Origin: an uncultured Lentisphaeraceae bacterium
Lineage (GTDB): Bacteria > Verrucomicrobiota > Kiritimatiellia > RFP12 > UBA1067
NCBI GenBank assembly: GCA_964440985.1
Contig: CAYTWE010000001.1
Location: forward strand, 16,875 to 80,874
Direction of reading: 5' to 3'
DNA: 64,000 bases
Shown: positions 26,117 to 60,643 of the stretch, one piece after another
Numbering within the stretch: the stretch's first letter is position 1
Layout: each line of letters begins with the position of its first letter
Notes under the pieces: generated by a model
What the model saw: only the letters and a program-made list of their open reading frames with translations
Database searches by the model: none
Told to the model about the DNA's origin: nothing
Position numbers and translations under genes: made by a program

Positions 26117-26131
26117 GACCTTCCGTCCCCC

Positions 26132-27889: not shown

Positions 27890-28374
27890 GATGCGGACTC
27901 CTCCTTGATCTTCCTGACGATCGCCCGCGCCTTTTCGGGCGTGAGGGAGCCGTACGCTGTTTCGTTGATCATCATGACCGGCGAAAGCGAGCAACAGCCG
28001 AGGCAAGCCACTTCCTTGAGCGAGAACAGTCCGTCCGCCGTCGTTTCGCCATCGCCTATGCCAAGCTCGTCCTGAAGCGCCTTGGCGATGGAATCCGCGC
28101 CGTTTACGTGACACGCCGTACCCTTGCACAGCATTATCAGGTTTTTGCCGACAGGCTGAAGCCTGAACTGGGTATAGAACGTCGCCACGCCCATCACCTT
28201 CGCAGGGCTTACCCCCACATGCTCCGCCACGGCGTAGATCACGTCCGTAGGCAGATAGCCATATATCTCCTGCGCCTTCTGCAGAATGGAGATCAGGGCA
28301 TGACCATCGCCCTCGAACTCCTTGAACACTGCATCAAGCCGCGTCAGATCGCTTTTTGCACACGTCTCACACAT
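27886..28374 (-). CDS. NuoE-like thioredoxin-fold [2Fe-2S] subunit (HydC/HndA type)
   Basis: CKGTACHVNGADSI...CLGCCSLSPVMMI gives the four Cys of 24-kDa-subunit-type ferredoxins; 162 aa. Confidence 0.85.
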   Translation of the reverse strand: MCETCAKSDLTRLDAVFKEFEGDGHALISILQKAQEIYGYLPTDVIYAVAEHVGVSPAKVMGVATFYTQFRLQPVGKNLIMLCKGTACHVNGADSIAKALQDELGIGDGETTADGLFSLKEVACLGCCSLSPVMMINETAYGSLTPEKARAIVRKIKEESAS

Positions 28375-39542: not shown

Positions 39543-41135
39543 TCAGTTTATGGCAACGTCCAACGTCGTCCCCTTCGTGAATGCGTACTGGAAGCGTCCG
39601 TTGTCCGATGCGACAAATGATTTCCCGGTGGCGGGAGCGAACACGCCAAGAAGGTTCTGCGTATACAGAAACGCAGACTCCCTGAACGCATAGGTGCTCC
39701 ACTCATGTCTTGGCTTCGCGAGCGGATTCGCGCATGGCGCATCCTCCGGCGACATCCCCGGCATGAAAAACGGCCTTGCGAGAAGCAGCACAACACCTTC
39801 ACCCTTCGCCGCCTCACATCTGAAATACGCATCCTGCCCGTTATCCACATCGTGTCCGGAATTGTCTATCCACACGAAGCGTACGCCATCCTCCACCCAC
39901 GCCGCCATGCGCTCCCGCCTGACGAAATCCCCTGGCCGGAGACGAAGTCTGCGCGGACGCGGATACGACGAGGAAACGATGCGAACCGCCGCCCCCTCCA
40001 CGGCAAACGACTTCGCGCCACGGCAACGCGACGGGAACACGCGATCACACTGTTCGCCGCCGCATCCGATGCGAAACACCTTCGTCTGGCTTCGGTAGGG
40101 CTTGACGGCAACAACGTCAATCAGCATCGACGCCGCAAGATTGATGCGGTTGAAACGATACATCGGCCGCAGGTTCTCCGGCCCGTTCAATCCATAGCTC
40201 TGCGTGATGACGTGCCGTACGCCGTTCTCCATCACATCGGCATCTAAATGCGCATGGCCGGCAAACGAACCCGCAATCCTGATGCGCCCTGTCTTTGCGT
40301 GGCGTTCAACGACGGCAAGCGCATCCGCAAGTCCGGGCGTAGTGCACGGCTCCGCGCTTGACCGCCAAAGGCCAAGATACGGATGCAGCGTCGCGTGAGA
40401 AAGGATAACCGCAGTCCAGCCATCCTTCAACTCTCCAAGGCTCCTGTCAAGGAAATCGACCTGACGCTGCGTCACGCCTACCCACGTCTTCCCCTTGGTG
40501 TTCCCGACGTTCAATTCAGACGTGTTGAGAAATATCACGCGGGTCATCTTGCGCGGGAAATCCCACAGGCCGTATCCGTCCACTGCATAGCGAAAACCCG
40601 AAGCGGACTCAAGCGCTGAATTGAAGAACCGGAAATAGTCGTCGGACGACTGGTGCCAGATGACGTTTCCGAGGTCGTGATTCCCGACAACATGAAGCGA
40701 CGGAACCGAGAACGTGCCGTATATGCGCCTCTCGCAATCCATTACCGCCCTTCCGAACGCCTCCGGCTCATCCTTCCACGTCTTCCTTCCGCGATCAAGA
40801 CCTATGTCGCCGAGATTGGCGATGAAGTCGGCGCCGAAGATTTTTGCCGCCGCATCTAAGGCATACTGGTGCACCATCCCGTCGCCCCAGTCCGGCGATC
40901 CGCCAAGCGACACGGTACCGGAATGGACATCGCTGACAACCGGGAACACAAGTGTCTCGTCAGCCCCTTTCCATTCGCAGAACCTTGCCTTCGCAAGCCT
41001 TATCTCACGCATCATCCAGTCGGGAATCGCGGGAGCGGCAGGCTTCCCTGCTTGCGATGCCAAAGCATTGGAGCCGAGCGCGACCGCCGCACCGGCGCCG
41101 GCCATCCCGATAACGGCCCTTCTTGTCATGTTCAT
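39543..41135 (-). CDS. Tat-secreted calcineurin-like metallophosphoesterase
   Basis: MNMTRRAVIGMAGAGAAVALGSNALA (twin-arginine signal); VVSDVHSG, LGDIGLD and VVGNHD metallophosphatase motifs. Start ATG 41135 with AAGGA upstream; ATGA overlap with the upstream gene. Confidence 0.7.
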   Translation of the reverse strand: MNMTRRAVIGMAGAGAAVALGSNALASQAGKPAAPAIPDWMMREIRLAKARFCEWKGADETLVFPVVSDVHSGTVSLGGSPDWGDGMVHQYALDAAAKIFGADFIANLGDIGLDRGRKTWKDEPEAFGRAVMDCERRIYGTFSVPSLHVVGNHDLGNVIWHQSSDDYFRFFNSALESASGFRYAVDGYGLWDFPRKMTRVIFLNTSELNVGNTKGKTWVGVTQRQVDFLDRSLGELKDGWTAVILSHATLHPYLGLWRSSAEPCTTPGLADALAVVERHAKTGRIRIAGSFAGHAHLDADVMENGVRHVITQSYGLNGPENLRPMYRFNRINLAASMLIDVVAVKPYRSQTKVFRIGCGGEQCDRVFPSRCRGAKSFAVEGAAVRIVSSSYPRPRRLRLRPGDFVRRERMAAWVEDGVRFVWIDNSGHDVDNGQDAYFRCEAAKGEGVVLLLARPFFMPGMSPEDAPCANPLAKPRHEWSTYAFRESAFLYTQNLLGVFAPATGKSFVASDNGRFQYAFTKGTTLDVAIN

Positions 41136-43315
41136 TTCCGGACATCCTTTCCGCAAGCGTTTCCGAGAATTATACCGGCAAGCCGCTCACGCGCCTTGCG
41201 TACCGCTTCCGGATTGCGCGTGAAGTCGGTCATCGAGCGGATGAGCGTTTTCGATATTTCCTTTACGGCTGCCGGATCTTTCGCGGCGGCCATCACAAGA
41301 TAATCGTAGTCCTCCGAGCCGTCGCGCAGATTCGCCAGGCGGATTGACGGCAGGATGCCATTCTTTCCGGGATATGCAAGCACCCCGTCCCCAGGCGCCT
41401 GAAGTCCGCTCCATGTATTCCATGCGGGGAACCACACATCCCGCTCATCAAGTTTCGGCTGGCTGCCGCTCCAGTAGTTTACGTTCCAGAAGAGAAACCC
41501 GTCTGAGCGATACAGATGCGTGAACCACGGGATGAGCCGCCCCTCCACCGTCGGATTCTCGTATGACGAGAAGTTGCAGTACGGATGGAACGGAGAGCAG
41601 CACGTGTACCACCAGACCTGACGCCCCATCCTGCGAAGCTCATCCGAGACGTCTTCGCGATAGATTGCGGTGAGAGGGGTGTGCCAGTCCGTTGCGGTCC
41701 AGAACGGAGAGACCTTGTCAGGATGCTGAACGCGATCTCTGTACATGTACGCGCTCGTGATGAGCGGCAGATCGGGATATACACCCTTAAGTCTTCTCCA
41801 CATCCTGTCGATGCCCTCGTAATAATCTGCTTCACGCTCGTCAAAACCGTAGATGCAGCATCCGTCAAGAAGGTTCCTTTTTCTGAGTTCCGCAACATAC
41901 GGCGTTAACGTGTTTGTCACGTACGTAAAAAACCCCTCCGAGAACACATCCTTCTTGGAGCCGTACACCACCCACGCCTGCCCCTTCGGCGGTGGCGGCG
42001 CAAGGTTGAGCAGGTTCACGTGCCGCTGCCCACGCGACTTGGCGTATGCGATATCCTCGATATCCGGAGGTGACGTGCGCGATATGTCAGTCCAGTCAAG
42101 CCTGTGGTCAAGCATCATGTCCATCGCCTCGCGACGCCGAACCTCAAACGATTCGGGGTAATGCCGCTTGATGAAACCATCCATGCAAGCGAACATCGCC
42201 GGAAAGGAAAACATCTTCGGAAGCGCAAAATTCCACACCTCCACGGCAACCGGAACCGTCTGCGAAAAACCGTCAGCGGCAACGAACTTCGCTTCGCACC
42301 TGTACGTCCCCGGCTTGGCGTCGCGTCCGGCGAAAACGGTAAGCCAGATGCCTTGCGTCGCTCCTTTCCTGACATCAACCGGCGCGGCAGGCAGCAGCAC
42401 CTCCGGAATCCACTTCTCGTGAGGATCAACGCCGCAAGGATGCGGCGCATACTCCGGACGGCGGGCAAGGTATCCCAACCGTTCCCACGAAATCGTGCCG
42501 TTGAGACGGTTCCCGGACGCATCCACCAGCGGCGTCAACTCTACGTTCAGCTCCTTCAGTTCACGCTCCGCACCTGTCGTGACAAGCACCTGCGCCGATT
42601 CGCGCTCGCCCTTCGCCAATCGCAGACACACGCTTGCCGGCGTTCGCCTGTCCTCATCCGCTGGGAACGTAAGCGGCGTCACCTTGCGCATTGAATCAGC
42701 CGTCCAGAGGCACACGCCATCCGGCGGCAAAGACGACACCGGCCCACATTTCGCCGCCCCGTCCGCAATCGGCTCATAGACAAACCTGCCAGCAGAGTGA
42801 AGCGACCTGGCGGGATACGTCACAAGCATCTCATCGCTCTCAGAGAACGGCCGTCCCGTCATGCGCCGCGCAGACAGCTGTACATGTCCGGGATCGCGAC
42901 GCTCAAGGAACACATTGCGGAAAAGAACCTCGCCGCCCGGCGCAAACGGGTCGCGGTAGAGGGCATAGAGCTTGATTTTCCGGACCGGAGAGCCGGGATA
43001 GTGCACAGATCCGGATTTCTCCCAGCCGTGCGTCCCCTCGGTGAACGTCGCAAGCAGTTTGTACGTAAACGTGCCGTCAGCGTGCTCGACATCCACATAG
43101 AGACAGTACTCCTTCGCGCAGGCATTCACCGCCTTCGATTCGCCGCCGAACCATATCGGTGAGCAGTCAGGAGATTCATACGTCCGTTCAATCACCGCCT
43201 TGGTGACTGATGGAGCAAAGGTTGCCGCAGAATCCGAAGCGATGCCGGACAGTGCTGCAGCTGCGGCAAGCGCGACAACGGCCGTCATCGTCTTCATATT
43301 GCAGCAACCCTTCAT
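41132..43315 (-). CDS. Secreted hypothetical protein, possibly a glycoside-hydrolase-like (DUF4091-type) enzyme
   Basis: Signal peptide (MKTMTAVVALAAAAALSG); 727 aa; Trp/Tyr-rich C-terminal half (FWNVNYWSGSQ..WFPAWNTWSG). No catalytic motif identified with confidence. An alternative start is at ATG 43297. Confidence 0.4.
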   Translation of the reverse strand: MKGCCNMKTMTAVVALAAAAALSGIASDSAATFAPSVTKAVIERTYESPDCSPIWFGGESKAVNACAKEYCLYVDVEHADGTFTYKLLATFTEGTHGWEKSGSVHYPGSPVRKIKLYALYRDPFAPGGEVLFRNVFLERRDPGHVQLSARRMTGRPFSESDEMLVTYPARSLHSAGRFVYEPIADGAAKCGPVSSLPPDGVCLWTADSMRKVTPLTFPADEDRRTPASVCLRLAKGERESAQVLVTTGAERELKELNVELTPLVDASGNRLNGTISWERLGYLARRPEYAPHPCGVDPHEKWIPEVLLPAAPVDVRKGATQGIWLTVFAGRDAKPGTYRCEAKFVAADGFSQTVPVAVEVWNFALPKMFSFPAMFACMDGFIKRHYPESFEVRRREAMDMMLDHRLDWTDISRTSPPDIEDIAYAKSRGQRHVNLLNLAPPPPKGQAWVVYGSKKDVFSEGFFTYVTNTLTPYVAELRKRNLLDGCCIYGFDEREADYYEGIDRMWRRLKGVYPDLPLITSAYMYRDRVQHPDKVSPFWTATDWHTPLTAIYREDVSDELRRMGRQVWWYTCCSPFHPYCNFSSYENPTVEGRLIPWFTHLYRSDGFLFWNVNYWSGSQPKLDERDVWFPAWNTWSGLQAPGDGVLAYPGKNGILPSIRLANLRDGSEDYDYLVMAAAKDPAAVKEISKTLIRSMTDFTRNPEAVRKARERLAGIILGNACGKDVRK

Positions 43316-46300
43316 CTTACGACAACCACTGTGCCAAGTCTGCCGTACCCGATGCGGAGACGCTTGTCTGAAACGAAAATCCTCCAGCCGTCATCGAGCG
43401 CTCCATCTGAATCGAGTTTAAGCGCACCATTGCATTTGATCGTCCCGGCAGTTGTGAGGATTGTGAACCGCTCCGTTCGCCTCTTGGCAAGAAGTTCCGC
43501 GTTCCCGATCTTCACGGTTGCACCTGATTCAATCTCAATGTTTCCTGAGAGCGCAAGGTCAAGCGTCTTACCGGCGATGAATTCAGCAGCATCGAACCCC
43601 AAGGCCGCCGTTTGAACGGCAGCGGCATGGACTGTTCCGAATCCGGAAAGGCCAACGAGTTTGACTGAGGCAAGCTTGTCTGACGTGAGACCTCCGTTTC
43701 CGAACCGGCACACGCCACCATCCATCACAAGCGGTGAATTTGTCGGATAATGCCATCCGGCAGACCAATACTGAACCGTCGCGCCGGAAGATATTGTCGT
43801 CGCACCGCGATAGTCCGATTCCTGTTCCGCATTCGAGGCAATAGTGAGCGTACCGTCTCCGCAATAGCGAACGCCGCCGCTTCTGTCGTTGTCGGCAAGA
43901 CAGTCCGTAATCGCAATCTCGGTATCCTGCGTCCGTCCGCCTCGACGCAGAATGGCCTTTGCCCAGGTGTAGTCGCATCCGGGGGACGTCACGACGATGT
44001 TCGTTATCAGCCCCGCATTCTCATCGAACTGCGCAAACGCGGAGGCGCCCCATCCATCGCCCTCTACCTCGATTAGCGGCGATGCCGTGAACTCCCACGC
44101 CCCGACATCAGGCACGGGAATCGCCCTTACGCCCTTCCCCGTGGGCGACTTGAACGCCTTGCGCAGTGTGCCGCCGCCGGAACCGCCTGACGGCAGAGAC
44201 AGATCGAAGTTTGCTCCGCCACCGAAAACCGTCATCCGGGTAATCCTGTTGCCGGCCATCTCTGAACCGGCACCCTGAAACTGCAGCGTCCCGCCGTTGA
44301 AGTTGAGGTAGACGCGGTTGTCAGCAACGCGGAAGGAAGCCATGTTGTTCTGTATCTGCGTAGAGTTTGTGATGGCTGCGCCATTCAAGAGCGATGCGGG
44401 AGAAAGCATGACGCCACCGTTCAGGTTGATGATCGATACGGAGTTCGAGCCGCATCCGAGATTTAGGTTCGACATCGACACGGCGGCATTTCCGTCGATT
44501 GTCAATGCACTGCGCGCATTCGCCGTATTCCCGGCCTGCCCCCACACGATGAACGGCATGTCAATGCGGAGGAATTTCGCTTCAGCATTTCCGCCGATGT
44601 ACATGTGCGCCTTTCCGCCATGGCTTCCGATTCCCACGCCGCCGTTTGCGGTGTGATCGAACAGTCCGCCGGTCATGTCGAATGTTGCGCACCCGGTGGA
44701 CGTATGTCCGAAGCAGACCCAGTTGTTCGAACGCCAGCGGCCATCGCGCATCAGTACGCATCCGCCGATGTGGTCGCCCACCATGCCGTACGGCCAGTAT
44801 CCGGAGGCGTATTCAACCCAATAGTCTCCACCGTCAATCACAAACGTCCCTTGGCTGTATATGGAATCGCCCGACGAAAACGTCGAATCGTCAACGCTGT
44901 ATACGCCGTTTGATATTATGCCGCCATTTTCAAGACGGAGAATTCCCCGCGAAGCGACGGTGTTGTTTGTGCTGTTTCTTCCGAGGAGTATTCCATGCGC
45001 CCCATTCACGGACATTGGTTTGCCGAGATCGAGCACACCGCCGTCCTCCACGGTAAGCCGTGCGACTTCAGGATACGGAGAACCTATCATGTAGCAGGTC
45101 TTTTCAAGCAGGGTATACGACCCAACGGCAAAGCCATTGGAGGCTGACTCGTCCATTATCAGGCTTATCCGCGGGTCGCCAGCGGACTCTTTTGCGCGAA
45201 ACGCCGCAGGATAGTGCGCGTGATAGTACATGACTGCGGCGGCATCGTCCTTCCCGCTTGGCGATACGGTGATGAACGTACCCAGCCCGTCTGCACTCGA
45301 AAGGTAGGAGCTCGTGAATGTACCGTTCGTGAAACTCGGCATGACGGCGGAGACCGACGTGGCATAGAGACACCCCTGGTAGTTGTTGATGTTCATGATG
45401 GTGTTGCCGGGGTTGTCGAGCACAAGATAGTTGTCGCGGCAACGTATGGTGCCCTCGCCTGATACGATGCCTGATATCGTACACGCCAATGTTCCATCGG
45501 AATTGCTGCCGTCAGTGCCTGGGTGCCAAGCGAGTGTCGCACCTTTCGCAATCTCGACCGGTCCGGACCATCCGCGCTCCGCCTTGGGCCATTTATCCGC
45601 CCATGTGGAACACGCCCATTGCACAGACACCCCTTCCTCAATCGCGAGACGCCAGGTCATGACAGACCGGGCATTGTTCGCGATGCGCCACTGGCACGAT
45701 GACTTGAACGTAAGCGAATGTTCGTCGCCACCGGGGAAACTCGTGTTCTCTGTCACGAAGTAAAGCCCTTTGTCAATGACCATGCTGCCGGGGTTGACTA
45801 TCAGGTTCGGCATTGATGTATAAAAGTGGATGCTGTTCATCACGCCATTCCCGCACAGGGTGAGCGTATGGCCGTTCATGTCTATGGATTGACTTCCACC
45901 CGTGGCGAACACCTCGGACTTCGACGACGCGCCGCCCCAGGTTGCATCGCCTGACAACTTCCATGAAACGTTCTTGTGCGTCCAGTTGCCGCCGATGACG
46001 CGCACCGCGCTTTCACCATCAACGCCGCTGCCCTCGAATTCAATCTTGCCGCAGAGGAGATCTGAATCAGAAAGCGCCGCACCGTCTATTTCAAGCGTGG
46101 CGCCATCCGCCACGATTGCGCCGCGCGCAGCGGCGGAGCCTAACGCACCGGTGTGCGCAACGCGGAGATAGCCTTCATCGACCTTTACCGCTCCGCTCCA
46201 GGACGCATCAAACAGCCCGCCGGATATGACGAGACGTCCCCGCCCTTTCTTCACGAGATTGTCAGCTGCTCCAAGTCCTGCGACATCCGCCGCCGAAAGC

Positions 46301-46434
46301 GTTCTGTCCGCATCGCCTTCGTCCACCATGACGGTCACGTCGGCAACGGCAATGCCGCCGAGAGCGCACAGAGCACAGAGCATGGCTTTCGGCAGCAAAC
46401 TGTTTTTTGAACGGCACACTGATCCATTTTCCAT
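43312..46434 (-). CDS. Large secreted parallel beta-helix / PATR-repeat protein (autotransporter-associated beta-strand repeat type)
   Basis: 1040 aa. Signal peptide MENGSVCRSKNSLLPKAMLCALCALGGIAVA. Gly/Asn/Thr/Ser-rich repeats throughout. Start set at ATG 46434, with GGGAGGTG 7 nt upstream. Confidence 0.6.
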   Translation of the reverse strand: MENGSVCRSKNSLLPKAMLCALCALGGIAVADVTVMVDEGDADRTLSAADVAGLGAADNLVKKGRGRLVISGGLFDASWSGAVKVDEGYLRVAHTGALGSAAARGAIVADGATLEIDGAALSDSDLLCGKIEFEGSGVDGESAVRVIGGNWTHKNVSWKLSGDATWGGASSKSEVFATGGSQSIDMNGHTLTLCGNGVMNSIHFYTSMPNLIVNPGSMVIDKGLYFVTENTSFPGGDEHSLTFKSSCQWRIANNARSVMTWRLAIEEGVSVQWACSTWADKWPKAERGWSGPVEIAKGATLAWHPGTDGSNSDGTLACTISGIVSGEGTIRCRDNYLVLDNPGNTIMNINNYQGCLYATSVSAVMPSFTNGTFTSSYLSSADGLGTFITVSPSGKDDAAAVMYYHAHYPAAFRAKESAGDPRISLIMDESASNGFAVGSYTLLEKTCYMIGSPYPEVARLTVEDGGVLDLGKPMSVNGAHGILLGRNSTNNTVASRGILRLENGGIISNGVYSVDDSTFSSGDSIYSQGTFVIDGGDYWVEYASGYWPYGMVGDHIGGCVLMRDGRWRSNNWVCFGHTSTGCATFDMTGGLFDHTANGGVGIGSHGGKAHMYIGGNAEAKFLRIDMPFIVWGQAGNTANARSALTIDGNAAVSMSNLNLGCGSNSVSIINLNGGVMLSPASLLNGAAITNSTQIQNNMASFRVADNRVYLNFNGGTLQFQGAGSEMAGNRITRMTVFGGGANFDLSLPSGGSGGGTLRKAFKSPTGKGVRAIPVPDVGAWEFTASPLIEVEGDGWGASAFAQFDENAGLITNIVVTSPGCDYTWAKAILRRGGRTQDTEIAITDCLADNDRSGGVRYCGDGTLTIASNAEQESDYRGATTISSGATVQYWSAGWHYPTNSPLVMDGGVCRFGNGGLTSDKLASVKLVGLSGFGTVHAAAVQTAALGFDAAEFIAGKTLDLALSGNIEIESGATVKIGNAELLAKRRTERFTILTTAGTIKCNGALKLDSDGALDDGWRIFVSDKRLRIGYGRLGTVVVVR

Positions 46435-46560
46435 TTGGACACCTCCCATTTTCTCCAATGGGCTTTATTGTCTCATAATGGTTTTTTTTTTGTCAACAGG
46501 AAAGTGCCGCCCGGAATCTGCCAATGCTGCTCGGCGGGCGTATCCATCCGGTGGACATCG

Positions 46561-47274
46561 TCATCCGGACACGATCTGCGCGACGATGTCGCGACAATGC
46601 GTCGAGACGAAGAGGTATGCCGCCACTGCATTGGACAGAAGGCTTGAGCCTATTGCGCAGAACGTGACATCGGTTGTACACGCAATCCAAAGAAGCACTC
46701 CGAGCAGGTTGCAGGCAAGTATCAGCGTCCAGGAGAACACCCGACCATACTCCTCGACATCTGGCTGCGTCTGCATGAGCGAACGTATCGTAAAGCAGAG
46801 ATGGAAGCACCATGTAAACCCTACTGCGAACATCCACGCCCATGGAGCGGGGAATGGCGACGACGGGGCGACGAAACACATGACCGCACGGACCATGAGC
46901 GCAAGCAGGACGACCACCATCGTCCAGAACGGGAAAAAGTACGGCGCAAGGGTGATCCACACGTTCGATTTCGTCAGCTTCACGCTGCCTCCCTTTACGC
47001 CCACCTTCAGATCCGCAACCTTTGCGCCGAACGCCAGCCCCCACACGGCATGGGTCAGTTCATGCCCCAACACGTACAGACGCACTGGGTCGGACACGAA
47101 AAGCCGCATGGCAAGAAACGCAGCCATGCCAAGAAAAAGTGAAATCGCCTCGGCAGAGAAGAGTCCGTGCGCAGAGCCGGAAACGAGCGAAAACGAATCA
47201 AAAAACGTCAGACACAGCGCCCAGACGAAGGGAAAGCACAGCACGGCCGCGAAAAAACGGACGAACCGCACCAC
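46561..47274 (-). CDS. Polytopic membrane protein with an HExxH zinc-binding motif (putative intramembrane zincin-like metallopeptidase)
   Basis: YVLGHELTHAVWG sits between predicted TM helices; 237 aa with at least 5 hydrophobic segments. Family unresolved (M50/DUF3267-like). Confidence 0.5.
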   Translation of the reverse strand: MVRFVRFFAAVLCFPFVWALCLTFFDSFSLVSGSAHGLFSAEAISLFLGMAAFLAMRLFVSDPVRLYVLGHELTHAVWGLAFGAKVADLKVGVKGGSVKLTKSNVWITLAPYFFPFWTMVVVLLALMVRAVMCFVAPSSPFPAPWAWMFAVGFTWCFHLCFTIRSLMQTQPDVEEYGRVFSWTLILACNLLGVLLWIACTTDVTFCAIGSSLLSNAVAAYLFVSTHCRDIVAQIVSG

Positions 47275-47283
47275 GGCAAGCCC

Positions 47284-47559
47284 TCAGTTCTCAAACACAA
47301 AGACGAGTTCACCGGGGAACGCCCGGCGATTCTCTCGCGCCAATCCCTCTACGAATTCGCGATCGGTGCGGAATCTGTTCTGCTTTTCGCGCACAGCCGC
47401 AATCTCCTCGTTCTTGAGGTTGATGCGACGCTCCAGATCCGCCTTTGTCTGCTCAAGCCCCGCCGCCTGGCGGTACTTGGGGAGCGTAATCATCAATCCA
47501 GTCGCCACGATGGCGCCAAATATGACGAAAAACAATCCCTTGAACAATTTGTCTATCAC
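47284..47559 (-). CDS. ftsB: Septum formation initiator family protein (FtsB/DivIC-like)
   Basis: N-terminal TM, coiled-coil LEQTKADLERRINLKNEEIAAVREKQNRF, C-terminal ..DREFVEGLARENRRAFPGELVFVF. Probable GTG start. A TTGACA-N18-TTTAAT promoter-like element lies at 47600-47629 inside the upstream CDS. Confidence 0.6.
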   Translation of the reverse strand: MIDKLFKGLFFVIFGAIVATGLMITLPKYRQAAGLEQTKADLERRINLKNEEIAAVREKQNRFRTDREFVEGLARENRRAFPGELVFVFEN

Positions 47560-47599
47560 TTTGCCGATTCCGTCTTTGAGGTGAATTGCGTGTATTAAA

Positions 47600-50500
47600 T
47601 CACAAATCCATGCCTGCTGTCAACAGTACGCGCAAGAACTCAGAAGCACTCCACGCCTGCGCCCTGCATCCCTTCTGGGCATGGGGAGCGTCACCATCCG
47701 CTATCTCGGAAATATGGCATAGACATTCTGTGTTCAGGTTCTCGACCGCTCCGGCAAGCAGCGAACCGGCCTGCGCCCTATTGAGACGACCGCATTTCAT
47801 CGCCGCCTCGGCGAACATCGGCATCGGCCACGCCCACACGGTGCCGTTGTGGTATGCCGGCTTCCGGCTCGTATCCTCATCGCCGGCGTATGAACCGCGG
47901 TATTTCGGATCGTCTGCGGCAAGCGAACGGATGCCGCCCGGCACAAGAAGGCGTTCGCACGAATCCATGATTGCCTTGCAGAACACCTGACGCTGCACAG
48001 CCTCTGCGGACTTCGCCGTGCCGTCTTGCGGCGGCGGGACGCCAATCACATCGAGCGTTATCAGCATCAGCTGATTCGGCCGTACGGAGAAGTCCGGCTT
48101 CGCCTCCGCCGCCGGCTCGCCGTTCCAGGCGTCGAGGCAGTCTGCAAACCCGTCAGGTCCGGCGAACAGACGCATCACGCTTTCAGTCGCCTTGTCCGCA
48201 AGCACATTCCATCTGCCGCCCGCGAACCGCAAGGCCGCTATCCAAAGTGCCTGGATATCCACCGGATATCCGCAGCGCGGGGTGCAGGCGGGATAGTTCG
48301 TATCCATCCACGTGAAGTGCGAGGGGGTCCACACAAGTCCAGATGCGGCGTCCACGCGGATGCCGTTCGGGGTGCCCTTCACATAGTTTTCAATTATCGA
48401 CGCCGTAGTTCTGCGGAACAATGCGACGGATGGCGATGTTCCGTCGCTGCCGGATTTTTCAATCCACTCCTTGACGCACAGGATAAACCAAAGCTGCGCG
48501 TCGACGGTGTCGCGATTGCCCGCCGTTTCTCCGTAGATGATGTTTGGAAGCGTGCCGCACTCCTCGAACGAAGCGAACTCGGCGAGAATCCTTTCCGCAT
48601 CGTCAAGCCGTCCATCCGCAATCGCACCGCGCAGGAATATGAACGTGTCGCGTCCCCAGTCAAGAAACCACGGATATCCGGCAATGGCGGTCTTGTTCGC
48701 TCCGCGCCTTACCATGAAGAGGTTGAGCGCCGCGGAAAGGTCGTCGATCAACGGCATCGTCTGACACCCTTCGCCATCCACACCATGCGGCGTCTCGACG
48801 ATCTTCAGCCATTCAGCGCAGTGAAGGTCTGCGTCACGGTAGCCGCATACAATCTCCGCAGAATCGCCCGGCATCATGTCGCACGATATCCATCCCGGCG
48901 AATACAGGTCGCCGCTCGGCTCCTGCCCACGCGCCGCCTCGTCCGGATGCGGCACAGAGTACGTCCACTGCGGCTCACGGTGCATCTCGCCGCCGTTCAC
49001 GTGAAGATGCACGTCAGATTCGATTTGGGACGCAATCGCGCCTTCACCGGCGTACGCTTTCGTCACGCCGTGGAAACTGCGGCATTCGAGATCCGGACGG
49101 AAGACCAGTCGCACACGCTCACCGAATCTTGCGGCGTCATCGCAGCGTCTTACGAGCAGCCGCGCCACATTCACGCCATGCGCAAGCTCAAGCCTGAACA
49201 TTAACGGCACAACCCTGCCCATGCCTGACGGAACGGCAAACCGCCATTCCGCAAACCGGCCCGCCGGATCCGCCCTGAAACCTTCGGACGTGTCTGCATC
49301 TATCGCATGGGAATAGCCCTCGTACTGAAGCCACGCACGGCATCGCGTCCAGACTACCATGCGGTCTGAAGGGCAGTCCGGATTCGGGTTCGCCGAAAAC
49401 AGCGAATCATACTGCGAACGGATTTCGCCCCACCGCAGCGGCAGGAACGCATCGGCGCCGGCGCCGTTGGAAAGACAGGTGCGGAGCGTCGGGTCACGAC
49501 GGATGTCATCTCCGGTGACGGACACCATTGCACGCGCATCCTTCAAAGACGGAAGCACGAGCACTGCGGAGCGTGAACGCTTCACGCCGTCGGGCGCAAA
49601 CACGGCCATCTCAAGGGAAAGACGGCGGGCACGCGTACCGTCTCCGCTGTACGACGGCACCTCAGGGAACGCAGTCTCGCCTTCAAGCAGCAGCGCCCGG
49701 TACGGATGCGGGCACTGAATGCGCAGCCCCATCCCGTCCGGAACGCACACTTCGCGCCGCACGTCTTCAGGCCAGTGCCAGACCATGCATGAGCGCCGCT
49801 CCGGCCGGATGCGATGCTCCGCGTCTGCACGGTCGCACTTTTCGCAAATCGAATCCGCACATGATTCAAGGCACATGAATCCGCCCGGCGCAAGTTCCAT
49901 CCCCTGATGCAGATCCACATCGCCGCCGTTCAGGACATCATGGCACCGCCCCACCGGGAACTTGGCGGCGTCCCAATGCACCCGCACGGAATTCGCGCAG
50001 TCGAGATTCGCGAAGACGAGAAGCCGCCGCCCCGTCAATTCCGCCACGCGCAGGACGGCAAGGAAATTCCCGCCGTCACGCTGAACCATCTCCTGGCGAA
50101 CGCTGCCGGCAAAAGCCGGGTGGCTCGAAACGAGCCGGTTGAGCGAAGCGACAAGTTCGACCATGTTGTCCGACGATCCCCAGTTGAGGTCGTTCTTTCC
50201 GTGGACGTCTATCTTCTCCGTTGCGTACCACTCCACTCCGTTCGTGATCCCCCACGCGCCCTGATGGCTGAGCAGCGCCGCAAGCGCCACGCGCATACGC
50301 GCATACGTCTTGCCGGAGGCGGCAAGTCTGCTGTTGTCGTGCGTCTCCGCGAAATGCACGAGCGCACCGAAACGCATCGCCCTGTCGTTTGCGGAAGGAA
50401 GATAGCTCTCGAACTGCGAGCGGTCGTAAGTCTGGAAAAGTTCAGAGTACGCCCAGTCCAGTCCTACATCCGCAAGAAGACTGTCGGTTACGTCAAGCCG

Positions 50501-51415
50501 TCCGCCAAGCCCCTCAAGCATGAACACAGTGTCGGGATGCTGTTCGCGCACCCGTCCCACGATCACCTTCCATGCGGCAGACGGTATCATGTACCCCGCA
50601 TCGCAGCGGAAGCCGTCAACGCCCTGTCTGCACCAGAAGAGGAACACGTCGGCCATGTACTCACGCAATGCTTCGTGGGCGTAGTCAAGTTCGACAAGAT
50701 CCTCCCACACCACTCCCCATGCGCCGGGTGATGCGAACTTCCCGTCATCGCGGCGGCGGAACCATTCCGGATGGTGCGTCTGAAGCGCACTCGCCCAACC
50801 CGTGTGGTTTGCCGGCAGATCCACAAAGATGCGTCCGCCACGTGCGTGAACGCCGTCAATGAGTTCGCGGAACTGATCAAGCGGCGTCACGCCCCTGTCA
50901 AACTCCGCCATTGCCGGGTCTACGGACTTGAAATCCGTAGCGGCAAACGGAGAGCCATATTCGCCCATGACTGCGTACGTCACCGGAACGGGGAACGGCG
51001 GAAGCGTCTGGACGATGCGAAAGCCCATGCCGTCCATGATGTGCGGAAGCCTGCGCACGATCTCGCGGAACGACCCGAACTGGCGCGGAAACACCGTGTA
51101 TATCGAGTTTGCGCTCCGTGTGTACGCCGGCGCAACCTTGATGCGCACATTGCCGCCCTGCGGCCATTCCGGAACTGTCGATCCGTCGGCGAAGAAGCAG
51201 CACTTGCCCTCGAACACGCCAACGCGAACAAGAGGGACGTCGGCCACAAACGTTCCGGGCGTACGCTCCTCCATTTCGATGTCATCCCAGATTCCGCTGA
51301 CGTTGGTGCGAAACACCGCACGTCCACGGCGCGGAGAGAAAAGCGTAAGCGACACGGGAAGCGCGTCACCGCACCACCGGACAGCATGTTCGCCGCAAGC
51401 AGGTGTCTGTATCAT
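47600..51415 (-). CDS. Fusion protein: N-terminal GH13 alpha-amylase-family domain (GlgE-like motifs) + C-terminal amylo-alpha-1,6-glucosidase / glycogen debranching enzyme domain (GDE_N/GDE_C)
   Basis: 1271 aa. GH13 regions I-IV: RIFVDLPANHTG, GVDGFRCDAGYM, FMLEGLGG, FAETHDN, plus HPEWF. C-terminal half: GYPWFLDWGRDTFI and AYHNGTVWAWPMPMF, typical of amylo-1,6-glucosidase (GH133-type) domains. Confidence 0.75.
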   Translation of the reverse strand: MIQTPACGEHAVRWCGDALPVSLTLFSPRRGRAVFRTNVSGIWDDIEMEERTPGTFVADVPLVRVGVFEGKCCFFADGSTVPEWPQGGNVRIKVAPAYTRSANSIYTVFPRQFGSFREIVRRLPHIMDGMGFRIVQTLPPFPVPVTYAVMGEYGSPFAATDFKSVDPAMAEFDRGVTPLDQFRELIDGVHARGGRIFVDLPANHTGWASALQTHHPEWFRRRDDGKFASPGAWGVVWEDLVELDYAHEALREYMADVFLFWCRQGVDGFRCDAGYMIPSAAWKVIVGRVREQHPDTVFMLEGLGGRLDVTDSLLADVGLDWAYSELFQTYDRSQFESYLPSANDRAMRFGALVHFAETHDNSRLAASGKTYARMRVALAALLSHQGAWGITNGVEWYATEKIDVHGKNDLNWGSSDNMVELVASLNRLVSSHPAFAGSVRQEMVQRDGGNFLAVLRVAELTGRRLLVFANLDCANSVRVHWDAAKFPVGRCHDVLNGGDVDLHQGMELAPGGFMCLESCADSICEKCDRADAEHRIRPERRSCMVWHWPEDVRREVCVPDGMGLRIQCPHPYRALLLEGETAFPEVPSYSGDGTRARRLSLEMAVFAPDGVKRSRSAVLVLPSLKDARAMVSVTGDDIRRDPTLRTCLSNGAGADAFLPLRWGEIRSQYDSLFSANPNPDCPSDRMVVWTRCRAWLQYEGYSHAIDADTSEGFRADPAGRFAEWRFAVPSGMGRVVPLMFRLELAHGVNVARLLVRRCDDAARFGERVRLVFRPDLECRSFHGVTKAYAGEGAIASQIESDVHLHVNGGEMHREPQWTYSVPHPDEAARGQEPSGDLYSPGWISCDMMPGDSAEIVCGYRDADLHCAEWLKIVETPHGVDGEGCQTMPLIDDLSAALNLFMVRRGANKTAIAGYPWFLDWGRDTFIFLRGAIADGRLDDAERILAEFASFEECGTLPNIIYGETAGNRDTVDAQLWFILCVKEWIEKSGSDGTSPSVALFRRTTASIIENYVKGTPNGIRVDAASGLVWTPSHFTWMDTNYPACTPRCGYPVDIQALWIAALRFAGGRWNVLADKATESVMRLFAGPDGFADCLDAWNGEPAAEAKPDFSVRPNQLMLITLDVIGVPPPQDGTAKSAEAVQRQVFCKAIMDSCERLLVPGGIRSLAADDPKYRGSYAGDEDTSRKPAYHNGTVWAWPMPMFAEAAMKCGRLNRAQAGSLLAGAVENLNTECLCHISEIADGDAPHAQKGCRAQAWSASEFLRVLLTAGMDL

Positions 51416-51437
51416 GTCGCGATGTCTCCCATTAATG

Positions 51438-52397
51438 TCAGAATATCTGCGAAGCGAGGAACGGGGTGCGGTCGTACGGAGGCTGGACTTCGCCGACGTT
51501 CGTCACTACGGGGCTGTTCAGCTGATCATGCTTCGACCATGCCGCAACGAGCGACGCGACGCGTGAAAGCGCTTCGGCGGGCGGCTCGCCCGGCACAAGC
51601 GCCGTCGGACCGGGACAGTTCACGGTGTACACGACCTTTCCGACATCGCCGCACTTCTTCAGGATGGCGTTCTCGCGTGAATCGCGTCCAAGAATCACAC
51701 CCGTGCCGTCCGGGAAACGGAAGCGCCTGGCTATTACAAGAATGTCCACAAGCTTCCTCACGCCAAGCCCTTCATGCTCCAGCAGATCCCTGAGCCGGTG
51801 TCCGAAACCTTTCTCCGTGAGTTTGCATCCGCCAGCGGGCGACGGATAGTCCACAACGCCATACTTCTTGGCCAGCTCAAACTGCGGCTCGCGGCGACGT
51901 CCGGAAAGCGCAAGCAGTTTTGAACGGTCTATGCCGCCCTCAATCTCCGGGATCGTCGGATCAAGCAGCTGGGCGCTCAACGGACGCAGCAGCCGTCCCT
52001 GCAGTCCGCTCGCCTTGGCGACGACTCCGAGCGACTGCTTGTTCTGGCTCATCGGACGCTGGTTCAGCACCTCTCCAGTTGCTACGAAATCGTAGCCGAG
52101 CGACGACATCATCTCGCCGGCCCTGCGTATCATCGTCGCATGGCAGTCTATGCACGGGTTCATCGCGCCGCCGAAGCCGTGCGGCGGATTCTCGATCAGA
52201 CGGCACTCATCGTCTGTGAAGTCGATCACGTGCAGCGGCACGCCAAGCGCCGCCGCCGCCCGCCGTGCCGCAGAGGACGAAAAGAACGGCGTCTCGAAGC
52301 ACACGCACTCCACCACCGCCCCAGCATCCTGAAGCACCTTCACCGCGAGCTGGCTGTCCAGCCCTCCACTAAGCAGGCTCAACCCTTTTGCGCCCAT
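51438..52397 (-). CDS. PP-loop superfamily ATP pyrophosphatase (ThiI/MnmA/QueC-like sulfur or amido transferase); function unresolved
   Basis: LSLLSGGLDSQLAVKVL (SGGxDS PP-loop) and NPCIDCH Cys pair; 320 aa from the internal Met (MGAKGLSLLSGG). Confidence 0.55.
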   Translation of the reverse strand: MGAKGLSLLSGGLDSQLAVKVLQDAGAVVECVCFETPFFSSSAARRAAAALGVPLHVIDFTDDECRLIENPPHGFGGAMNPCIDCHATMIRRAGEMMSSLGYDFVATGEVLNQRPMSQNKQSLGVVAKASGLQGRLLRPLSAQLLDPTIPEIEGGIDRSKLLALSGRRREPQFELAKKYGVVDYPSPAGGCKLTEKGFGHRLRDLLEHEGLGVRKLVDILVIARRFRFPDGTGVILGRDSRENAILKKCGDVGKVVYTVNCPGPTALVPGEPPAEALSRVASLVAAWSKHDQLNSPVVTNVGEVQPPYDRTPFLASQIF

Positions 52398-52457
52398 CCT
52401 TGCACCGCCTCCCTTGTCCGTAAAAAACAATTCAAGAAAACATCTCCACTGCGCCGC

Positions 52458-59248: not shown

Positions 59249-60643
59249 ATGACGATAATGCAGATGACCGCAATTGCGGCGGTGATGGCGGCGACGGTCG
59301 CATCGGGTCGGCCAGTGCCGCGTCCGGCACTCGTGGAACGCATGGAGAAAGGGCCGAACATCATCGGCATCGTGCATTGGGGACTTAACACCTACTCCGA
59401 CCGCGAATGGGGATACGGGGATGAAGATCCGAAGACACTTGCGCCCTCCGCATTTGACGCAGATCAGATAGTCTCCGCGTGCAAGGATGGAGGAATCGGC
59501 GGGCTTGTCATCGTCGCAAAGCACCATGACGGCTTCTGCCTGTGGCCGACGAAGACGACCGGACACAACATCTCGAAGTCTTCTTTCCGCAACGGCAAGG
59601 GAGACTACGTGAAGGAGATGGAGCAGGCCTGCCGCAGGGCCGGGATCCGCTTCGGCGTGTACGTCTCACCATGGGACCGCAATGCACCGGACTACGCCTC
59701 TCAGTCCTATGTTGAGAAGTATCATGCACAGATCAAGGAACTTCTGAGCGGGGACTATGGCGAGGTGTTCGAAATGTGGTTCGATGGCGCAAACGGCGGA
59801 AACGGCTGGTACGGAGGCGCAAAGGAAGTCCGCAGGATCCCGAACGGCTACTACCGGTTTGACGAGGTGTTCGCATTCGTCCGCGCACTGCAGCCCAAGG
59901 TGTGCATCTTCGCAGGCGAGTATGACGCATCCGATTTCCGCTGGCCGGGCAACGAACGCGGAATGCTCGACCCTGAATCACGTGCGACGATCGAAACCGT
60001 GGGCGGATACGCAAACGGAAAGTACGGCAACCCGAACTACAAGGGGCAGATCAACACCGGCTCTCCTGACGGCACGTTCTTCCGCGTGTGCGAGGCGGAC
60101 TTCCCGATGCGCCCCGGCTGGTTCTACCATGCCAAGGACAAAGGCCGCACCAAGAACGCCGCCTTCCTGATGCAACGCTACCTGACCACCGTCGGCAACG
60201 GCGGCACGATGAACTTGGGCATTGCCCCCAACCGCGAAGGACGACTTGACGACGAGGACGTGAACGCCCTGCGCGGATTCAGCGCACTCCGCAAGGCGTA
60301 CTTCTCCCGTCCGGTCAAGGATGGCAAGGCGAATCTCGCCGTTCTGCGCGAGGACATCTCGAAGGGCGAACAGATAAGCTCATGGAAGATCGTCGCGGGG
60401 GATTCGGTTCTCGCATCGGGGAAGGTCGTAGGCTGTGAACGCATCCGCGCACTTGCCGCCGCGACCGACGTGGCCCGAATCTCCCTCAAGACCGAGGGTG
60501 GCGACGTAAAGTCGGCTGAATACTACAACGTAGATCCGGAACTCGTCGAGCTTGTCGCGAACGCGACGGCAGAGGGCGGAGAGACGGATACGGCCAAGTG
60601 GATGACCGGCGCCGCAAAGGAGCCTGCCAGTTCACGGAAGTGA
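59249..60643 (+). CDS. Secreted alpha-L-fucosidase (GH29)
   Basis: VIVAKHHDGFCLWPT (GH29 nucleophile-region motif), signal-like N-terminus, RBS AAAGAAAGGA; 464 aa. Confidence 0.8.
   Translation: MTIMQMTAIAAVMAATVASGRPVPRPALVERMEKGPNIIGIVHWGLNTYSDREWGYGDEDPKTLAPSAFDADQIVSACKDGGIGGLVIVAKHHDGFCLWPTKTTGHNISKSSFRNGKGDYVKEMEQACRRAGIRFGVYVSPWDRNAPDYASQSYVEKYHAQIKELLSGDYGEVFEMWFDGANGGNGWYGGAKEVRRIPNGYYRFDEVFAFVRALQPKVCIFAGEYDASDFRWPGNERGMLDPESRATIETVGGYANGKYGNPNYKGQINTGSPDGTFFRVCEADFPMRPGWFYHAKDKGRTKNAAFLMQRYLTTVGNGGTMNLGIAPNREGRLDDEDVNALRGFSALRKAYFSRPVKDGKANLAVLREDISKGEQISSWKIVAGDSVLASGKVVGCERIRALAAATDVARISLKTEGGDVKSAEYYNVDPELVELVANATAEGGETDTAKWMTGAAKEPASSRK

Follow-up and report, generated by a model that had tools for sequence, protein, structure and literature searches.

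A bacterial GH13-GH133 fusion protein with two apparently intact active sites belongs to a widespread family and may debranch glycogen or other alpha-glucans

In eukaryotes, the glycogen debranching enzyme (GDE; AGL or Gdb1) combines an N-terminal GH13_25 transferase with a C-terminal GH133 glucosidase, and the roles of its key residues, including mutagenesis showing their essentiality, have been described (PMC4837477; PMC12219210). Bacteria have been said to lack this bifunctional enzyme (PMC12219210). The biochemistry of standalone prokaryotic GDE_N-GDE_C proteins ("archaeal-type," TIGR01561) is barely explored (PMC4236520; PMC11046441), and deletion of a standalone GH133 gene in Sulfolobus results in excess glycogen. 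Two GH13 subfamilies also bear on the protein analyzed here. Characterized members of GH13_48 hydrolyze starch and glycogen to release maltose, and no GDE fusion is found among the GH13_48 architectures in the same work (PMC11239784). In GlgE (GH13_3), the phosphate of maltose-1-phosphate is held by N352, K355, Y357, and N395 in Streptomyces coelicolor numbering (PMC4526890).

We analyzed a stretch of 64,000 nucleotides (the window) from an uncultured Lentisphaeraceae bacterium, in which a single uninterrupted frame on the minus strand, beginning with ATG, encodes 1271 aa plus a stop (ORF listing and translation). An earlier note, made from the letters of the window, had read this frame as a GlgE-like GH13 domain fused to an amylo-1,6-glucosidase domain. 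The ORF and every motif quoted for it were recovered (residues are those of the fusion protein): DLPANHTG at 199-206, HPEWF at 215-219, GFRCDAGYM at 268-276, EGLGG at 301-305, FAETHDN at 355-361, GYPWFLDWGRDT at 913-924, and YHNGTVWAWP at 1188-1197. The proposed single polypeptide with GH13 and GDE (GH133) parts is genuine, with three Pfam domains on one ORF: Alpha-amylase PF00128 (residues 114-277, E 1.3e-10, 41.5 bits versus a cutoff of 22), GDE_N PF12439 (residues 650-853, E 8.7e-18), and GDE_C PF06202 (residues 903-1262, E 4.4e-67). All three matches lie far beyond chance. The features are as follows.

51425..51430, minus strand: GGGAGA, a Shine-Dalgarno-like site 9 nt 5' of the ATG (sequence)
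47600..51415, minus strand: whole ORF, GH13 + GDE_N + GDE_C fusion protein (ORF listing, translation, Pfam)
51101..51415, minus strand: residues 1-105, N-terminal beta-sandwich that aligns with GlgE domain N in Foldseek (AF2 pLDDT >90 over residues 1-100)
50111..51100, minus strand: residues 106-435, GH13 catalytic (beta/alpha)8 barrel with a short domain B (Pfam, alignments, motifs)
49856..50110, minus strand: residues 436-520, GH13 domain C, all-beta (AF2 model, strands at 439-518)
49790..49855, minus strand: residues 521-542, intermodule linker (pLDDT <50 at 524-539; unconserved alignment columns)
48776..49789, minus strand: residues 543-880, GDE_N-type beta-sandwich region (PF12439, alignments to standalone proteins, AF2 model of the C-terminal half)
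47603..48775, minus strand: residues 881-1271, GDE_C/GH133 (alpha/alpha)6 barrel (PF06202, alignments to human and Candida GDE)

Residues 1-520 of the protein thus form a GH13 module and residues 543-1271 a complete GDE_N+GDE_C (GH133) module of the prokaryote type, with a linker between them that differs in length and sequence across the fusion family; alignments to standalone GDE_N-GDE_C proteins set in at about residue 543. The PP-loop ATPase gene upstream (51438-52430) is codirectional and stops 22 nt short of the fusion ATG, an order repeated in loci L082-L084. Hydropathy analysis revealed neither a signal peptide nor a transmembrane segment, and the substrate is therefore predicted to be intracellular.

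By sequence, both active sites are intact, their catalytic residues being invariant in 72 full-length family members drawn from several phyla, with identities down to ~40%. GH13 regions I to IV are present with their catalytic residues, namely, D199/N203/H204 (region I), R270/C271/D272, E301, and H359/D360, where D272 is the predicted nucleophile, E301 is the acid/base, D360 is the transition-state stabilizer, and the triad D272/E301/D360 is accompanied by H204, R270, and H359. All of these, together with D239, are identical in 72/72. The earlier note had considered that the N-terminal half might turn out to be noncatalytic or of an unrelated fold; the PF00128 match and the invariant GH13 residues were found instead. 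In the C-terminal half, D923 (WGRD), D1038 (TWMD), and E1237 are 100% conserved (72/72), and alignments to human and Candida GDE equate D923 with CgGDE D1078, D1038 with hsGDE D1261/CgGDE D1241, and E1237 with hsGDE E1502/CgGDE E1492. An (alpha/alpha)6 domain carrying the catalytic Asp and Glu as well as the WGRD Asp places this half in GH133/GDE_C, and a fold search with it retrieved GDE and other (alpha/alpha)6 glycosidases.

Within GH13, the domain appears closest in sequence to the exo-maltogenic amylases of subfamily GH13_48 from Thermotoga neapolitana (AmyB; 4GKL) and Lactiplantibacillus plantarum (3DHU), which rank highest by sequence among solved structures (E 2e-29 and 2e-20; 105 bits for 3DHU and 76 bits for 4GKL, with GlgE third at 56 bits). 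A Cys directly before the nucleophile, found in 81% of GH13_48/49 members (PMC11239784), is present as C271-D272 and invariant in the 72 sequences. In the alignments to both structures, D239, which lies in a loop of low confidence in the AF2 model, falls on the Asp of "dWsDv"; it is the equivalent of AmyB Asp135, which belongs to the non-reducing-end site and is 95% conserved in GH13_48 and not elsewhere (PMC11239784). The short domain B and the HPEWF block are also common to these amylases and the fusion protein. However, region VII of the fusion (NGVEW) has Gly-Val (G393-V394) in place of the Gly-Gln ending of GH13_48, and 4GKL and 3DHU are standalone proteins of ~420 to 450 aa without the N-terminal beta-sandwich and the GDE module, both of which the fusion has.

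As the earlier note had recognized, the layout mirrors that of eukaryotic GDE, with a putatively alpha-1,4-active GH13 domain at the N terminus and an amylo-1,6-glucosidase domain at the C terminus. The GH133 domains are homologous and keep the Candida and human residues named above, and glycogen phosphorylase is the apparent partner of both proteins. The middle, however, is made up of M1/M2 domains in eukaryotic GDE and of the bacterial GDE_N in the fusion protein, which is ~250 residues shorter. Pfam gave no match to hGDE_N, hDGE_amylase, or hGDE_central at E<=0.01, TIGR01531 reached 53.6 bits versus a cutoff of 1399.55 in the GDE_C part only, and the N-terminal half matched GDE neither by sequence search nor by fold search. 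Because its GH13 domain is of a different subfamily, the fusion was assembled independently, and its architecture is analogous, not orthologous, to that of eukaryotic GDE.

Standalone prokaryotic GDE_N-GDE_C proteins align end to end with residues 543-1271 at 36 to 50% identity, having both Pfam domains and lacking the GH13 module. The TIGR01561 model matches residues 809-1198 only (145.8 bits versus a cutoff of 364.15), making the protein a relative of that family and not an equivalog. With GlgX and TreX (GH13_11), the fusion protein presumably has in common a role in removing branches during glycogen breakdown, as well as a position in glycogen clusters. The catalytic solution, however, is unrelated. 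The fusion presumably cuts the alpha-1,6 bond by means of an (alpha/alpha)6 inverting enzyme, and searches of Pfam and NCBIfam returned no match to CBM48, the GH13_11 signature, or the GlgX/TreX models. The same GDE module is also found downstream of a different alpha-1,4-glucan-active domain, a GH77 4-alpha-glucanotransferase instead of GH13, in two MAG-encoded proteins of 1956 and 3058 aa, one of them with signaling domains (MBN2143060.1 from Candidatus Auribacterota and MHB8155328.1 from Candidatus Omnitrophota). This independent fusion shows that the prokaryotic GDE module has been recurrently paired with an enzyme that shortens or transfers alpha-1,4 chains, a pairing that follows an indirect debranching logic.

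In several lineages, the gene neighborhood points to glycogen metabolism. The next codirectional gene encodes an alpha-glucan phosphorylase (DUF3417 + Phosphorylase) in loci L054, L062, L074, L079, and L080, while GlgA (GT5) and then GlgB follow in Pontiella (L067); tblastn showed either fusion-glgP-glgA(-glgB) or fusion-glgA-glgB as the gene order at 12 loci, which span several phyla. In gut Kiritimatiellia, including the window, the fusion gene sits amid housekeeping and other glycoside hydrolase genes. No glycogen gene adjoins it in the window or the gut Kiritimatiellia loci, which counts against the indirect reading given below, and the neighbors that the earlier note had thought of (glgE, treS, pep2, and glgB) are all absent from the window.

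We put the chances at about even that the fusion is a bifunctional, soluble, cytoplasmic enzyme whose two active sites debranch stored glycogen or imported alpha-glucan by the indirect route set out below. Its observed basis is the domain architecture, the intact invariant catalytic residues, the wide conservation of the fusion, and the linkage to glgP/glgA/glgB in several lineages; from these we infer what the substrate is, which of the two reactions comes first, and whether the GH13 domain hydrolyzes or transfers. The enzyme would substitute for GlgX and act in partnership with alpha-glucan phosphorylase. On the indirect route, the GH13 domain, whose nearest characterized relatives are exo-acting maltogenic hydrolases and which keeps the recognition residue Asp135 as D239, would take off the alpha-1,4-linked part as maltose-sized units that are either released by hydrolysis or transferred onto another chain. 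The GH133 domain, a homolog of the glucosidase domain found in animal and fungal GDE and probably an inverting glucosidase of the pocket type, would then hydrolyze the residual alpha-1,6-linked glucose. Since a maltose-unit exo-enzyme would turn a 4-glucose stub into a maltosyl stub, this scheme would be clean only for 3-glucose stubs or with a different use of subsites. The GH13 active-site loops are of low confidence in the AF2 model (pLDDT <50 at 143-173, 202-206, and 227-241), which also counts against the indirect reading. Either order of events may apply, with stub trimming preceding glucose release or with direct debranching preceding exo-trimming.

Direct debranching is possible, though we consider it rather unlikely. 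In this scenario, GDE_N-GDE_C would, like isoamylase, cut the branch-point alpha-1,6 bond and free the side chain in one piece, whereupon the GH13_48-like domain would degrade the freed linear maltooligosaccharides, or outer chains, to maltose. The C-terminal half does find its best fold match in the amylo-alpha-1,6-glucosidase of Thermococcus gammatolerans (7VMA; Foldseek E 2.7e-14, target-normalized TM 0.59), which has the same beta-sandwich and (alpha/alpha)6 barrel. This enzyme reportedly debranches maltodextrin and glycogen directly, releasing whole chains with a preference for DP 13-24 (PMC9142091), and the match counts against the indirect reading. The maltose-forming hydrolytic activity of characterized GH13_48 members (PMC11239784) would suit such a division of labor, and the glycogen-cluster context fits it and the indirect model equally. 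However, 7VMA is 16% identical to the fusion protein, and sequence similarity between the two went undetected even by profile search at E<=10, whereas the glucosidase domains of eukaryotic GDE do match, sharing the WGRD, TWMD, YHNG, and E...QAWS motifs. Their active site is a pocket from which single glucose residues are released, and the independent fusions of a GH77 transferase to GDE favor a transferase-plus-glucosidase logic.

It is improbable that just one half is functional, the amylase domain then being merely a binding or targeting module, or that the substrate is not glycogen but another alpha-glucoside, such as a compatible solute or fragments of dietary starch or pullulan. The weak and partial Alpha-amylase match (41.5 bits, 114-277), NCBIfam matches that all fall far under their cutoffs, and the housekeeping and glycoside hydrolase surroundings of the gene in gut Kiritimatiellia would be in keeping with this idea. 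Yet the invariance of all catalytic residues of both domains in the 72 sequences argues that neither domain has decayed, and the predicted cytoplasmic location and the clustering with glgP, glgA, and glgB in 12 loci likewise speak for an enzyme of glycogen metabolism.

The earlier description of the N-terminal half as GlgE-like stands for the overall fold and the HPEWF block and falls for the sequence, which is closest to GH13_48, and for the phosphate site. Over the whole fold, residues 1-640 match GlgE structures best (Foldseek E ~1e-28 over ~650 columns), N-terminal domain included; the Asp following HPEWF is common to both, and both donor sites presumably have a cap at -2. An N-terminal maltose-1-phosphate-dependent maltosyltransferase, through which the fusion would serve alpha-glucan remodeling in a biosynthetic pathway like that of GlgE, is nevertheless very improbable. 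GlgE N352/K355/Y357/N395 are replaced by A232/V235/W237/A273, of which A232, W237, and A273 are identical in 72/72, and position 235 is V in 68 sequences, T in 3, and N in 1, never Lys. The canonical Asn-His of region I and His-Asp of region IV are kept, whereas GlgE has Gln-Cys and Pro-Asp. No GlgE family model of NCBIfam or GlgE-specific domain of Pfam matched at E<=0.01, and treS, pep2, and mak are absent among the neighbors examined. The GlgE-type reading is therefore disfavored.

That assembly, a frameshift, or read-through fused two neighboring genes is excluded for all practical purposes, since the identical 1271-aa product is encoded on 9 contigs independently assembled from separate sequencing runs, >120 full-length homologs have the same three Pfam domains, the linker is in frame throughout the family, and nothing at the window locus suggests otherwise. 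In 71 of the 80 best loci, a single ORF of >1200 aa has GDE motifs after the GH13 match; 8 others are cut by contig ends. In the remaining one, L017 on a related MAG contig, the fusion gene is frameshifted and split across three frames. Taxa with the single-ORF fusion among these loci include Kiritimatiellia, Lentisphaerae/Victivallales, Pontiella, and Desulfobacterales, and the ~60 clusters formed at 50% identity have lengths of 1300 to 1640 aa. The view that such an enzyme is unusual in a bacterium fits the searchable literature (PMC4236520; PMC12219210), in which we found no paper describing the GH13 + GDE_N + GDE_C architecture, and does not fit the sequence databases, where relatives are encoded by at least 566 species-level genomes.

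In conclusion, the fusion protein is a member of a widespread bacterial family that is described in no paper we found in the searchable literature. Should direct debranching, rather than the indirect route that we prefer, prove to be true, the protein would still be a bifunctional catabolic enzyme of glycogen or alpha-glucan, mechanistically unlike eukaryotic GDE.

Our analysis confirmed that the gene at 47600-51415 on the minus strand unites a GH13 domain and a glycogen debranching enzyme (GDE) module in one polypeptide, as the earlier note had read from the sequence alone. The ORF listing and translation gave a single frame without interruption, with an ATG start and 1271 codons plus a stop; all the motifs on which that reading had rested were found at their expected positions, and Pfam placed Alpha-amylase at residues 114-277 (E 1.3e-10), GDE_N at 650-853 (E 8.7e-18), and GDE_C at 903-1262 (E 4.4e-67). 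The domain layout was drawn from family alignments and two AlphaFold models, one for the N-terminal half (pLDDT 80, pTM 0.82) and one for the C-terminal half (pLDDT 78, pTM 0.84).

Features of the fusion gene (47600-51415, minus strand) and of its product
Upstream, co-directional: PP-loop ATPase gene with ThiI and NFACT-R_2 matches, stop 22 nt before the fusion ATG
9 nt 5' of the ATG, minus strand: ribosome-binding-site-like GGGAGA
Residues 1-105: beta-sandwich
Residues 106-435: GH13 barrel with a short domain B
Residues 199-206: motif DLPANHTG
Residues 215-219: motif HPEWF
Residues 268-276: motif GFRCDAGYM
Residues 301-305: motif EGLGG
Residues 355-361: motif FAETHDN
Residues 436-520: GH13 domain C
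Residues 521-542: variable linker
Residues 543-880: GDE_N-type beta-sandwich region
Residues 881-1271: (alpha/alpha)6 GDE_C barrel
Residues 913-924: motif GYPWFLDWGRDT
Residues 1188-1197: motif YHNGTVWAWP

Since the stretch from about residue 543 to the C terminus of the fusion aligns with standalone bacterial GDE_N-GDE_C proteins, at 36-50% identity, the fusion consists of a complete GH13 enzyme ahead of a complete prokaryote-type GDE. Neither a signal peptide nor a hydrophobic segment was found in it (maximum 19-residue Kyte-Doolittle score, 1.29), from which a cytoplasmic location is predicted. No NCBIfam family model hits the protein above its curated cutoff, and it therefore has no equivalog name. 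In most family members, the N-terminal beta-sandwich is lengthened by about 25 inserted residues (consensus ...RREII..TE.G.TPLAKAW..., family alignment A1), which neither the window protein nor its nearest relatives have (site at residues ~40-45, window ~51281-51298); some members, such as the homolog P0070, have low-complexity, KGE/KVK-rich linker inserts.

The supposed rarity of such a fusion in bacteria was not borne out in the databases. When one genome per GTDB species was scanned, at least 566 loci with a relative of the fusion's N-terminal half were found. The closest species-level relative, at 74% identity, is encoded by a human gut metagenome MAG of Kiritimatiellaeota, so that a gut Kiritimatiellia bacterium is the most likely source of the window. 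The best 80 of these loci belong to Kiritimatiellia (many of them gut and rumen MAGs), Lentisphaerae/Victivallales, Pontiella, Desulfobacterales (Desulfosarcina, Desulfatitalea), Deferrisomatales, one Planctomycetaceae bin, and one Gemmatimonadaceae bin. In 71 of the 80, one ORF of more than 1200 aa has GDE motifs downstream of the GH13 match; eight others end at a contig edge and one is frameshifted. In this last locus (L017, 8001-11770, on the rumen MAG contig RUG12612), the homolog is broken across three reading frames, as either a pseudogene or a sequencing error. Three loci, L045, L020, and L006, hold Kiritimatiellia-type gene copies (74%, 55%, and 57% identity, respectively) in bins labeled Limosilactobacillus gorillae, Faecalibacterium prausnitzii, and Clostridiales, probably through binning contamination.

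A word-indexed protein search returned more than 120 full-length relatives at 54-93% identity, nearly all with the same three Pfam domains and with generic NCBI names (Kiritimatiellae/Kiritimatiellia "amylo-alpha-1,6-glucosidase" or [quoted passage not shown]), and in an exhaustive HMMER search of 50%-identity representatives, both halves were matched by about 60 clusters, with lengths of 1300-1640 aa. Nine contigs from different sequencing runs encode exactly the same 1271-aa protein, with identical neighbors each time, a recurrence that, together with the full-length relatives and the single ORF in 71 of the 80 best loci, rules out that two genes were joined by assembly or by a frameshift, an artifact that the earlier note had named as one that would refute its reading.

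With respect to the GH13 domain, the description "GlgE-like" in that note stands only in part. Among solved structures, the best sequence match is the amylase of Lactiplantibacillus plantarum (3DHU; E 2e-29, 105 bits), followed by Thermotoga neapolitana AmyB (4GKL; E 2e-20, 76 bits), Streptomyces coelicolor GlgE (3ZSS; E 1.5e-14, 56 bits), and cyclodextrin glucanotransferases (1CYG, 3CGT, and others; E 2.4e-12 and weaker, at most 49 bits). The first two are the founding members of GH13_48, a group of exo-acting maltogenic amylases in which a Cys before the nucleophile and Asp135 of AmyB have been singled out (PMC11239784). Both features recur in the fusion, where C271 directly precedes the nucleophile D272 and D239 is the equivalent of Asp135, and both are invariant in the family.

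By fold, GlgE structures are the best matches to the 640-residue N-terminal half (E ~1e-28, about 650 aligned columns, TM ~0.55), since an N-terminal beta-sandwich is present in GlgE as well; without one, 3DHU matches with a TM of 0.65 normalized to its own length. As GlgE and the fusion further share the HPEWF block and the Asp after it, the earlier impression is understandable. However, the residues that bind the phosphate of maltose-1-phosphate in GlgE, N352, K355, Y357, and N395 (PMC4526890), align with A232, V235, W237, and A273 of the fusion, and where GlgE has Gln-Cys in region I and Pro-Asp in region IV, the fusion has the canonical Asn-His and His-Asp. No GlgE family model in Pfam or NCBIfam matched, and a GlgE identity was rejected on these grounds. 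We conclude that the domain is GH13_48-like and would be exo-acting, rather than a GlgE; its AlphaFold model is too uncertain in the active-site loops for subsites to be read from it.

Both halves retain their catalytic residues. In the GH13 domain these are D199/N203/H204, R270/D272, E301, and H359/D360. In the GH133 (GDE_C-type amylo-1,6-glucosidase) domain, D923 (WGRD) aligns with D1078 of the Candida glabrata enzyme (CgGDE), D1038 (TWMD) with D1261 of the human enzyme (hsGDE) and D1241 of CgGDE, and E1237 with hsGDE E1502 and CgGDE E1492; mutation of the equivalents of these three residues abolishes glucosidase activity in eukaryotic GDE (PMC4837477; PMC12219210). When the window protein was aligned with 71 full-length relatives from several phyla, at identities down to about 40%, all of the listed residues proved 100% conserved, a pattern indicative of purifying selection on both active sites.

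The genomic context links the fusion to glycogen clearly in the more divergent family members. The next co-directional gene encodes an alpha-glucan phosphorylase (DUF3417 and Phosphorylase) in Desulfobacterales (loci L074, L079, and L080) and Victivallales (L054 and L062), and in Pontiella (L067) the fusion is followed by GlgA (GT5) and then GlgB (CBM48, amylase, and amylase_C). By tblastn, the order is fusion-glgP-glgA(-glgB) at L054, L062, L068, L079, and L080, fusion-glgP at L055, L060, L072, and L074, and fusion-glgA-glgB at L065, L067, and L075. The first of these groups forms compact, co-directional clusters (~12.3-18.3 kb in locus coordinates), as does the third, and the clusters span Victivallales, Desulfobacterales, and Pontiella. 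On casual inspection of the sequence around them, no glgX-like gene was seen. The fusion thus sits where a debranching enzyme belongs in glycogen gene clusters.

Around the fusion in the window, as around its relatives in gut Kiritimatiellia, lie housekeeping genes and other glycoside hydrolases. The glgB gene, which the earlier note had suggested seeking elsewhere in the genome, was not found in the 64-kb window, where Pfam scans of 30 large ORFs detected no glycogen genes and GlgP, GlgA, and GlgB from related loci gave no tblastn match; on the 100-kb contig of a 55%-identical homolog, the neighbors of the fusion are housekeeping genes only. The window's further glycoside hydrolases (37859-39529, 41132-43315, 3959-5728, and 59249-60643) comprise two rhamnosidase-like proteins (Bac_rhamnosid6H), one GH123-like protein, and one alpha-L-fucosidase, which fits a complex-glycan-degrading Kiritimatiellia lifestyle. 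A 452-aa ORF at 46226-47584 on the plus strand, without a family match, is probably a spurious shadow ORF. Opposite it lie a 237-aa gene (46561-47274, minus strand) and a 91-aa gene, which the independent contigs have annotated downstream of the fusion. Also downstream, a 1048-aa protein (43312-46458, minus strand) has a subthreshold passenger-associated-transport-repeat as its sole match. About 20 kb from the fusion gene, the window (24083-28129, minus strand) has NuoF-like (Complex1_51K) and Fer2/Fer4/Pyr_redox_2 genes whose products resemble subunits of an NADH-dependent or electron-bifurcating oxidoreductase; in a 55%-identical relative (locus L081, 20529-23885), such genes are about 7-9 kb away from it, which may reflect loose synteny.

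By the best-supported reading, the fusion would be a cytoplasmic, bifunctional enzyme that debranches glycogen in partnership with phosphorylase. For its mode of action we favor, at roughly an even chance, an "indirect" order: the GH13_48-like domain would shorten the branch stub from the nonreducing end, by hydrolysis or transfer, and the GH133 domain would then take off the residual alpha-1,6-linked glucose. This order is favored because the motifs for catalysis and glucose binding are common to the GH133 domain and the eukaryotic glucosidase domain, and because the (alpha/alpha)6 relatives of the GH133 domain (GH15, GH63, and GH133), with which the fold matches of the C-terminal half agree, are pocket-type exo-glycosidases. 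A further reason is that the same GDE_N-GDE_C module has been independently fused to a GH77 4-alpha-glucanotransferase; GH77 members are transferases. This second fusion, in which GDE_N and GDE_C follow the GH77 domain, is found in MBN2143060.1 (1956 aa, Candidatus Auribacterota MAG) and in MHB8155328.1 (3058 aa, Candidatus Omnitrophota MAG), the latter also carrying Response_reg and HATPase_c domains. A weakness of the indirect scheme is that a four-glucose stub, trimmed by maltose units, ends as maltose rather than glucose. Its main rival, which we regard as unlikely, is direct debranching, wherein the GDE module would cut off the whole side chain at the branch and the released chains would then be exo-trimmed. 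Thermococcus gammatolerans 7VMA, whose fold the C-terminal half matches best, is indeed reported to release whole chains (DP 13-24) (PMC9142091), but it has no detectable sequence similarity to the fusion, even in a profile search at E<=10.

The comparison with eukaryotic GDE drawn in the earlier note holds as an analogy: the architecture would work similarly, outside that family, and the GH133 motifs are shared. Pfam did not detect hGDE_N, hDGE_amylase, or hGDE_central in the fusion, TIGR01531 reaches 54 of the 1399 bits set as its cutoff, and neither sequence nor fold searches matched the N-terminal half to GDE, so that, over its N-terminal two thirds, the fusion was judged not to be an ortholog. 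It is not a member of the eukaryotic family and is best regarded as having been assembled independently.

Debranching in bacteria is conventionally credited to GlgX and MalQ. Prokaryotic GDE homologs have been described as GDE_N-GDE_C proteins without experimental evidence (PMC4236520), and a Sulfolobus GH133 mutant accumulates glycogen (PMC11046441). Bifunctional GDE has been stated to be absent from bacteria, the two-activity enzyme being treated as a eukaryotic invention in textbooks and in recent structural work (PMC12219210). A survey of GH13_48 architectures lists no GDE fusions (PMC11239784), and we found no description of a bacterial GH13-GDE fusion in the searchable literature. The sequences themselves are already public under generic annotations and do not constitute a new protein family; the fusion is a widespread, unrecognized, and apparently uncharacterized architectural variant of known enzyme families.

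We put forward, tentatively and at somewhat less than an even chance, that the PVC group and Desulfobacterota possess a true single-polypeptide "indirect" GDE, combining an alpha-1,4 stub remover or transferase with an amylo-1,6-glucosidase, which would be independent of the eukaryotic enzyme and would have arisen at least twice in bacteria, as GH13_48-like plus GH133 and as GH77 plus GH133 (Auribacterota and Omnitrophota). If true, this would overturn the claim that bifunctional GDE is restricted to eukaryotes and provide the first functional handle on the large, uncharacterized prokaryotic GDE_N-GDE_C family. A less probable extension would connect such a bacterial fusion with how the eukaryotic GDE architecture originated. 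The fusion runs counter to that general statement, yet stays within well-known enzyme chemistry. Joining an exo-acting GH13 to GH133, often directly upstream of glgP-glgA-glgB, it acts as a natural "Rosetta stone" that ties the processing of alpha-1,4 chains to the GH133 module of prokaryotes and offers a clue to the function of the GH133 family. The family could also yield compact bifunctional debranching enzymes for starch processing. These data suggest that Kiritimatiellia, Lentisphaerae, and Desulfobacterales use an alternative to GlgX when they break down glycogen, and the biochemistry of the fusion would inform both how debranching strategies evolved and how abundant anaerobes of gut and sediment turn over their glycogen.
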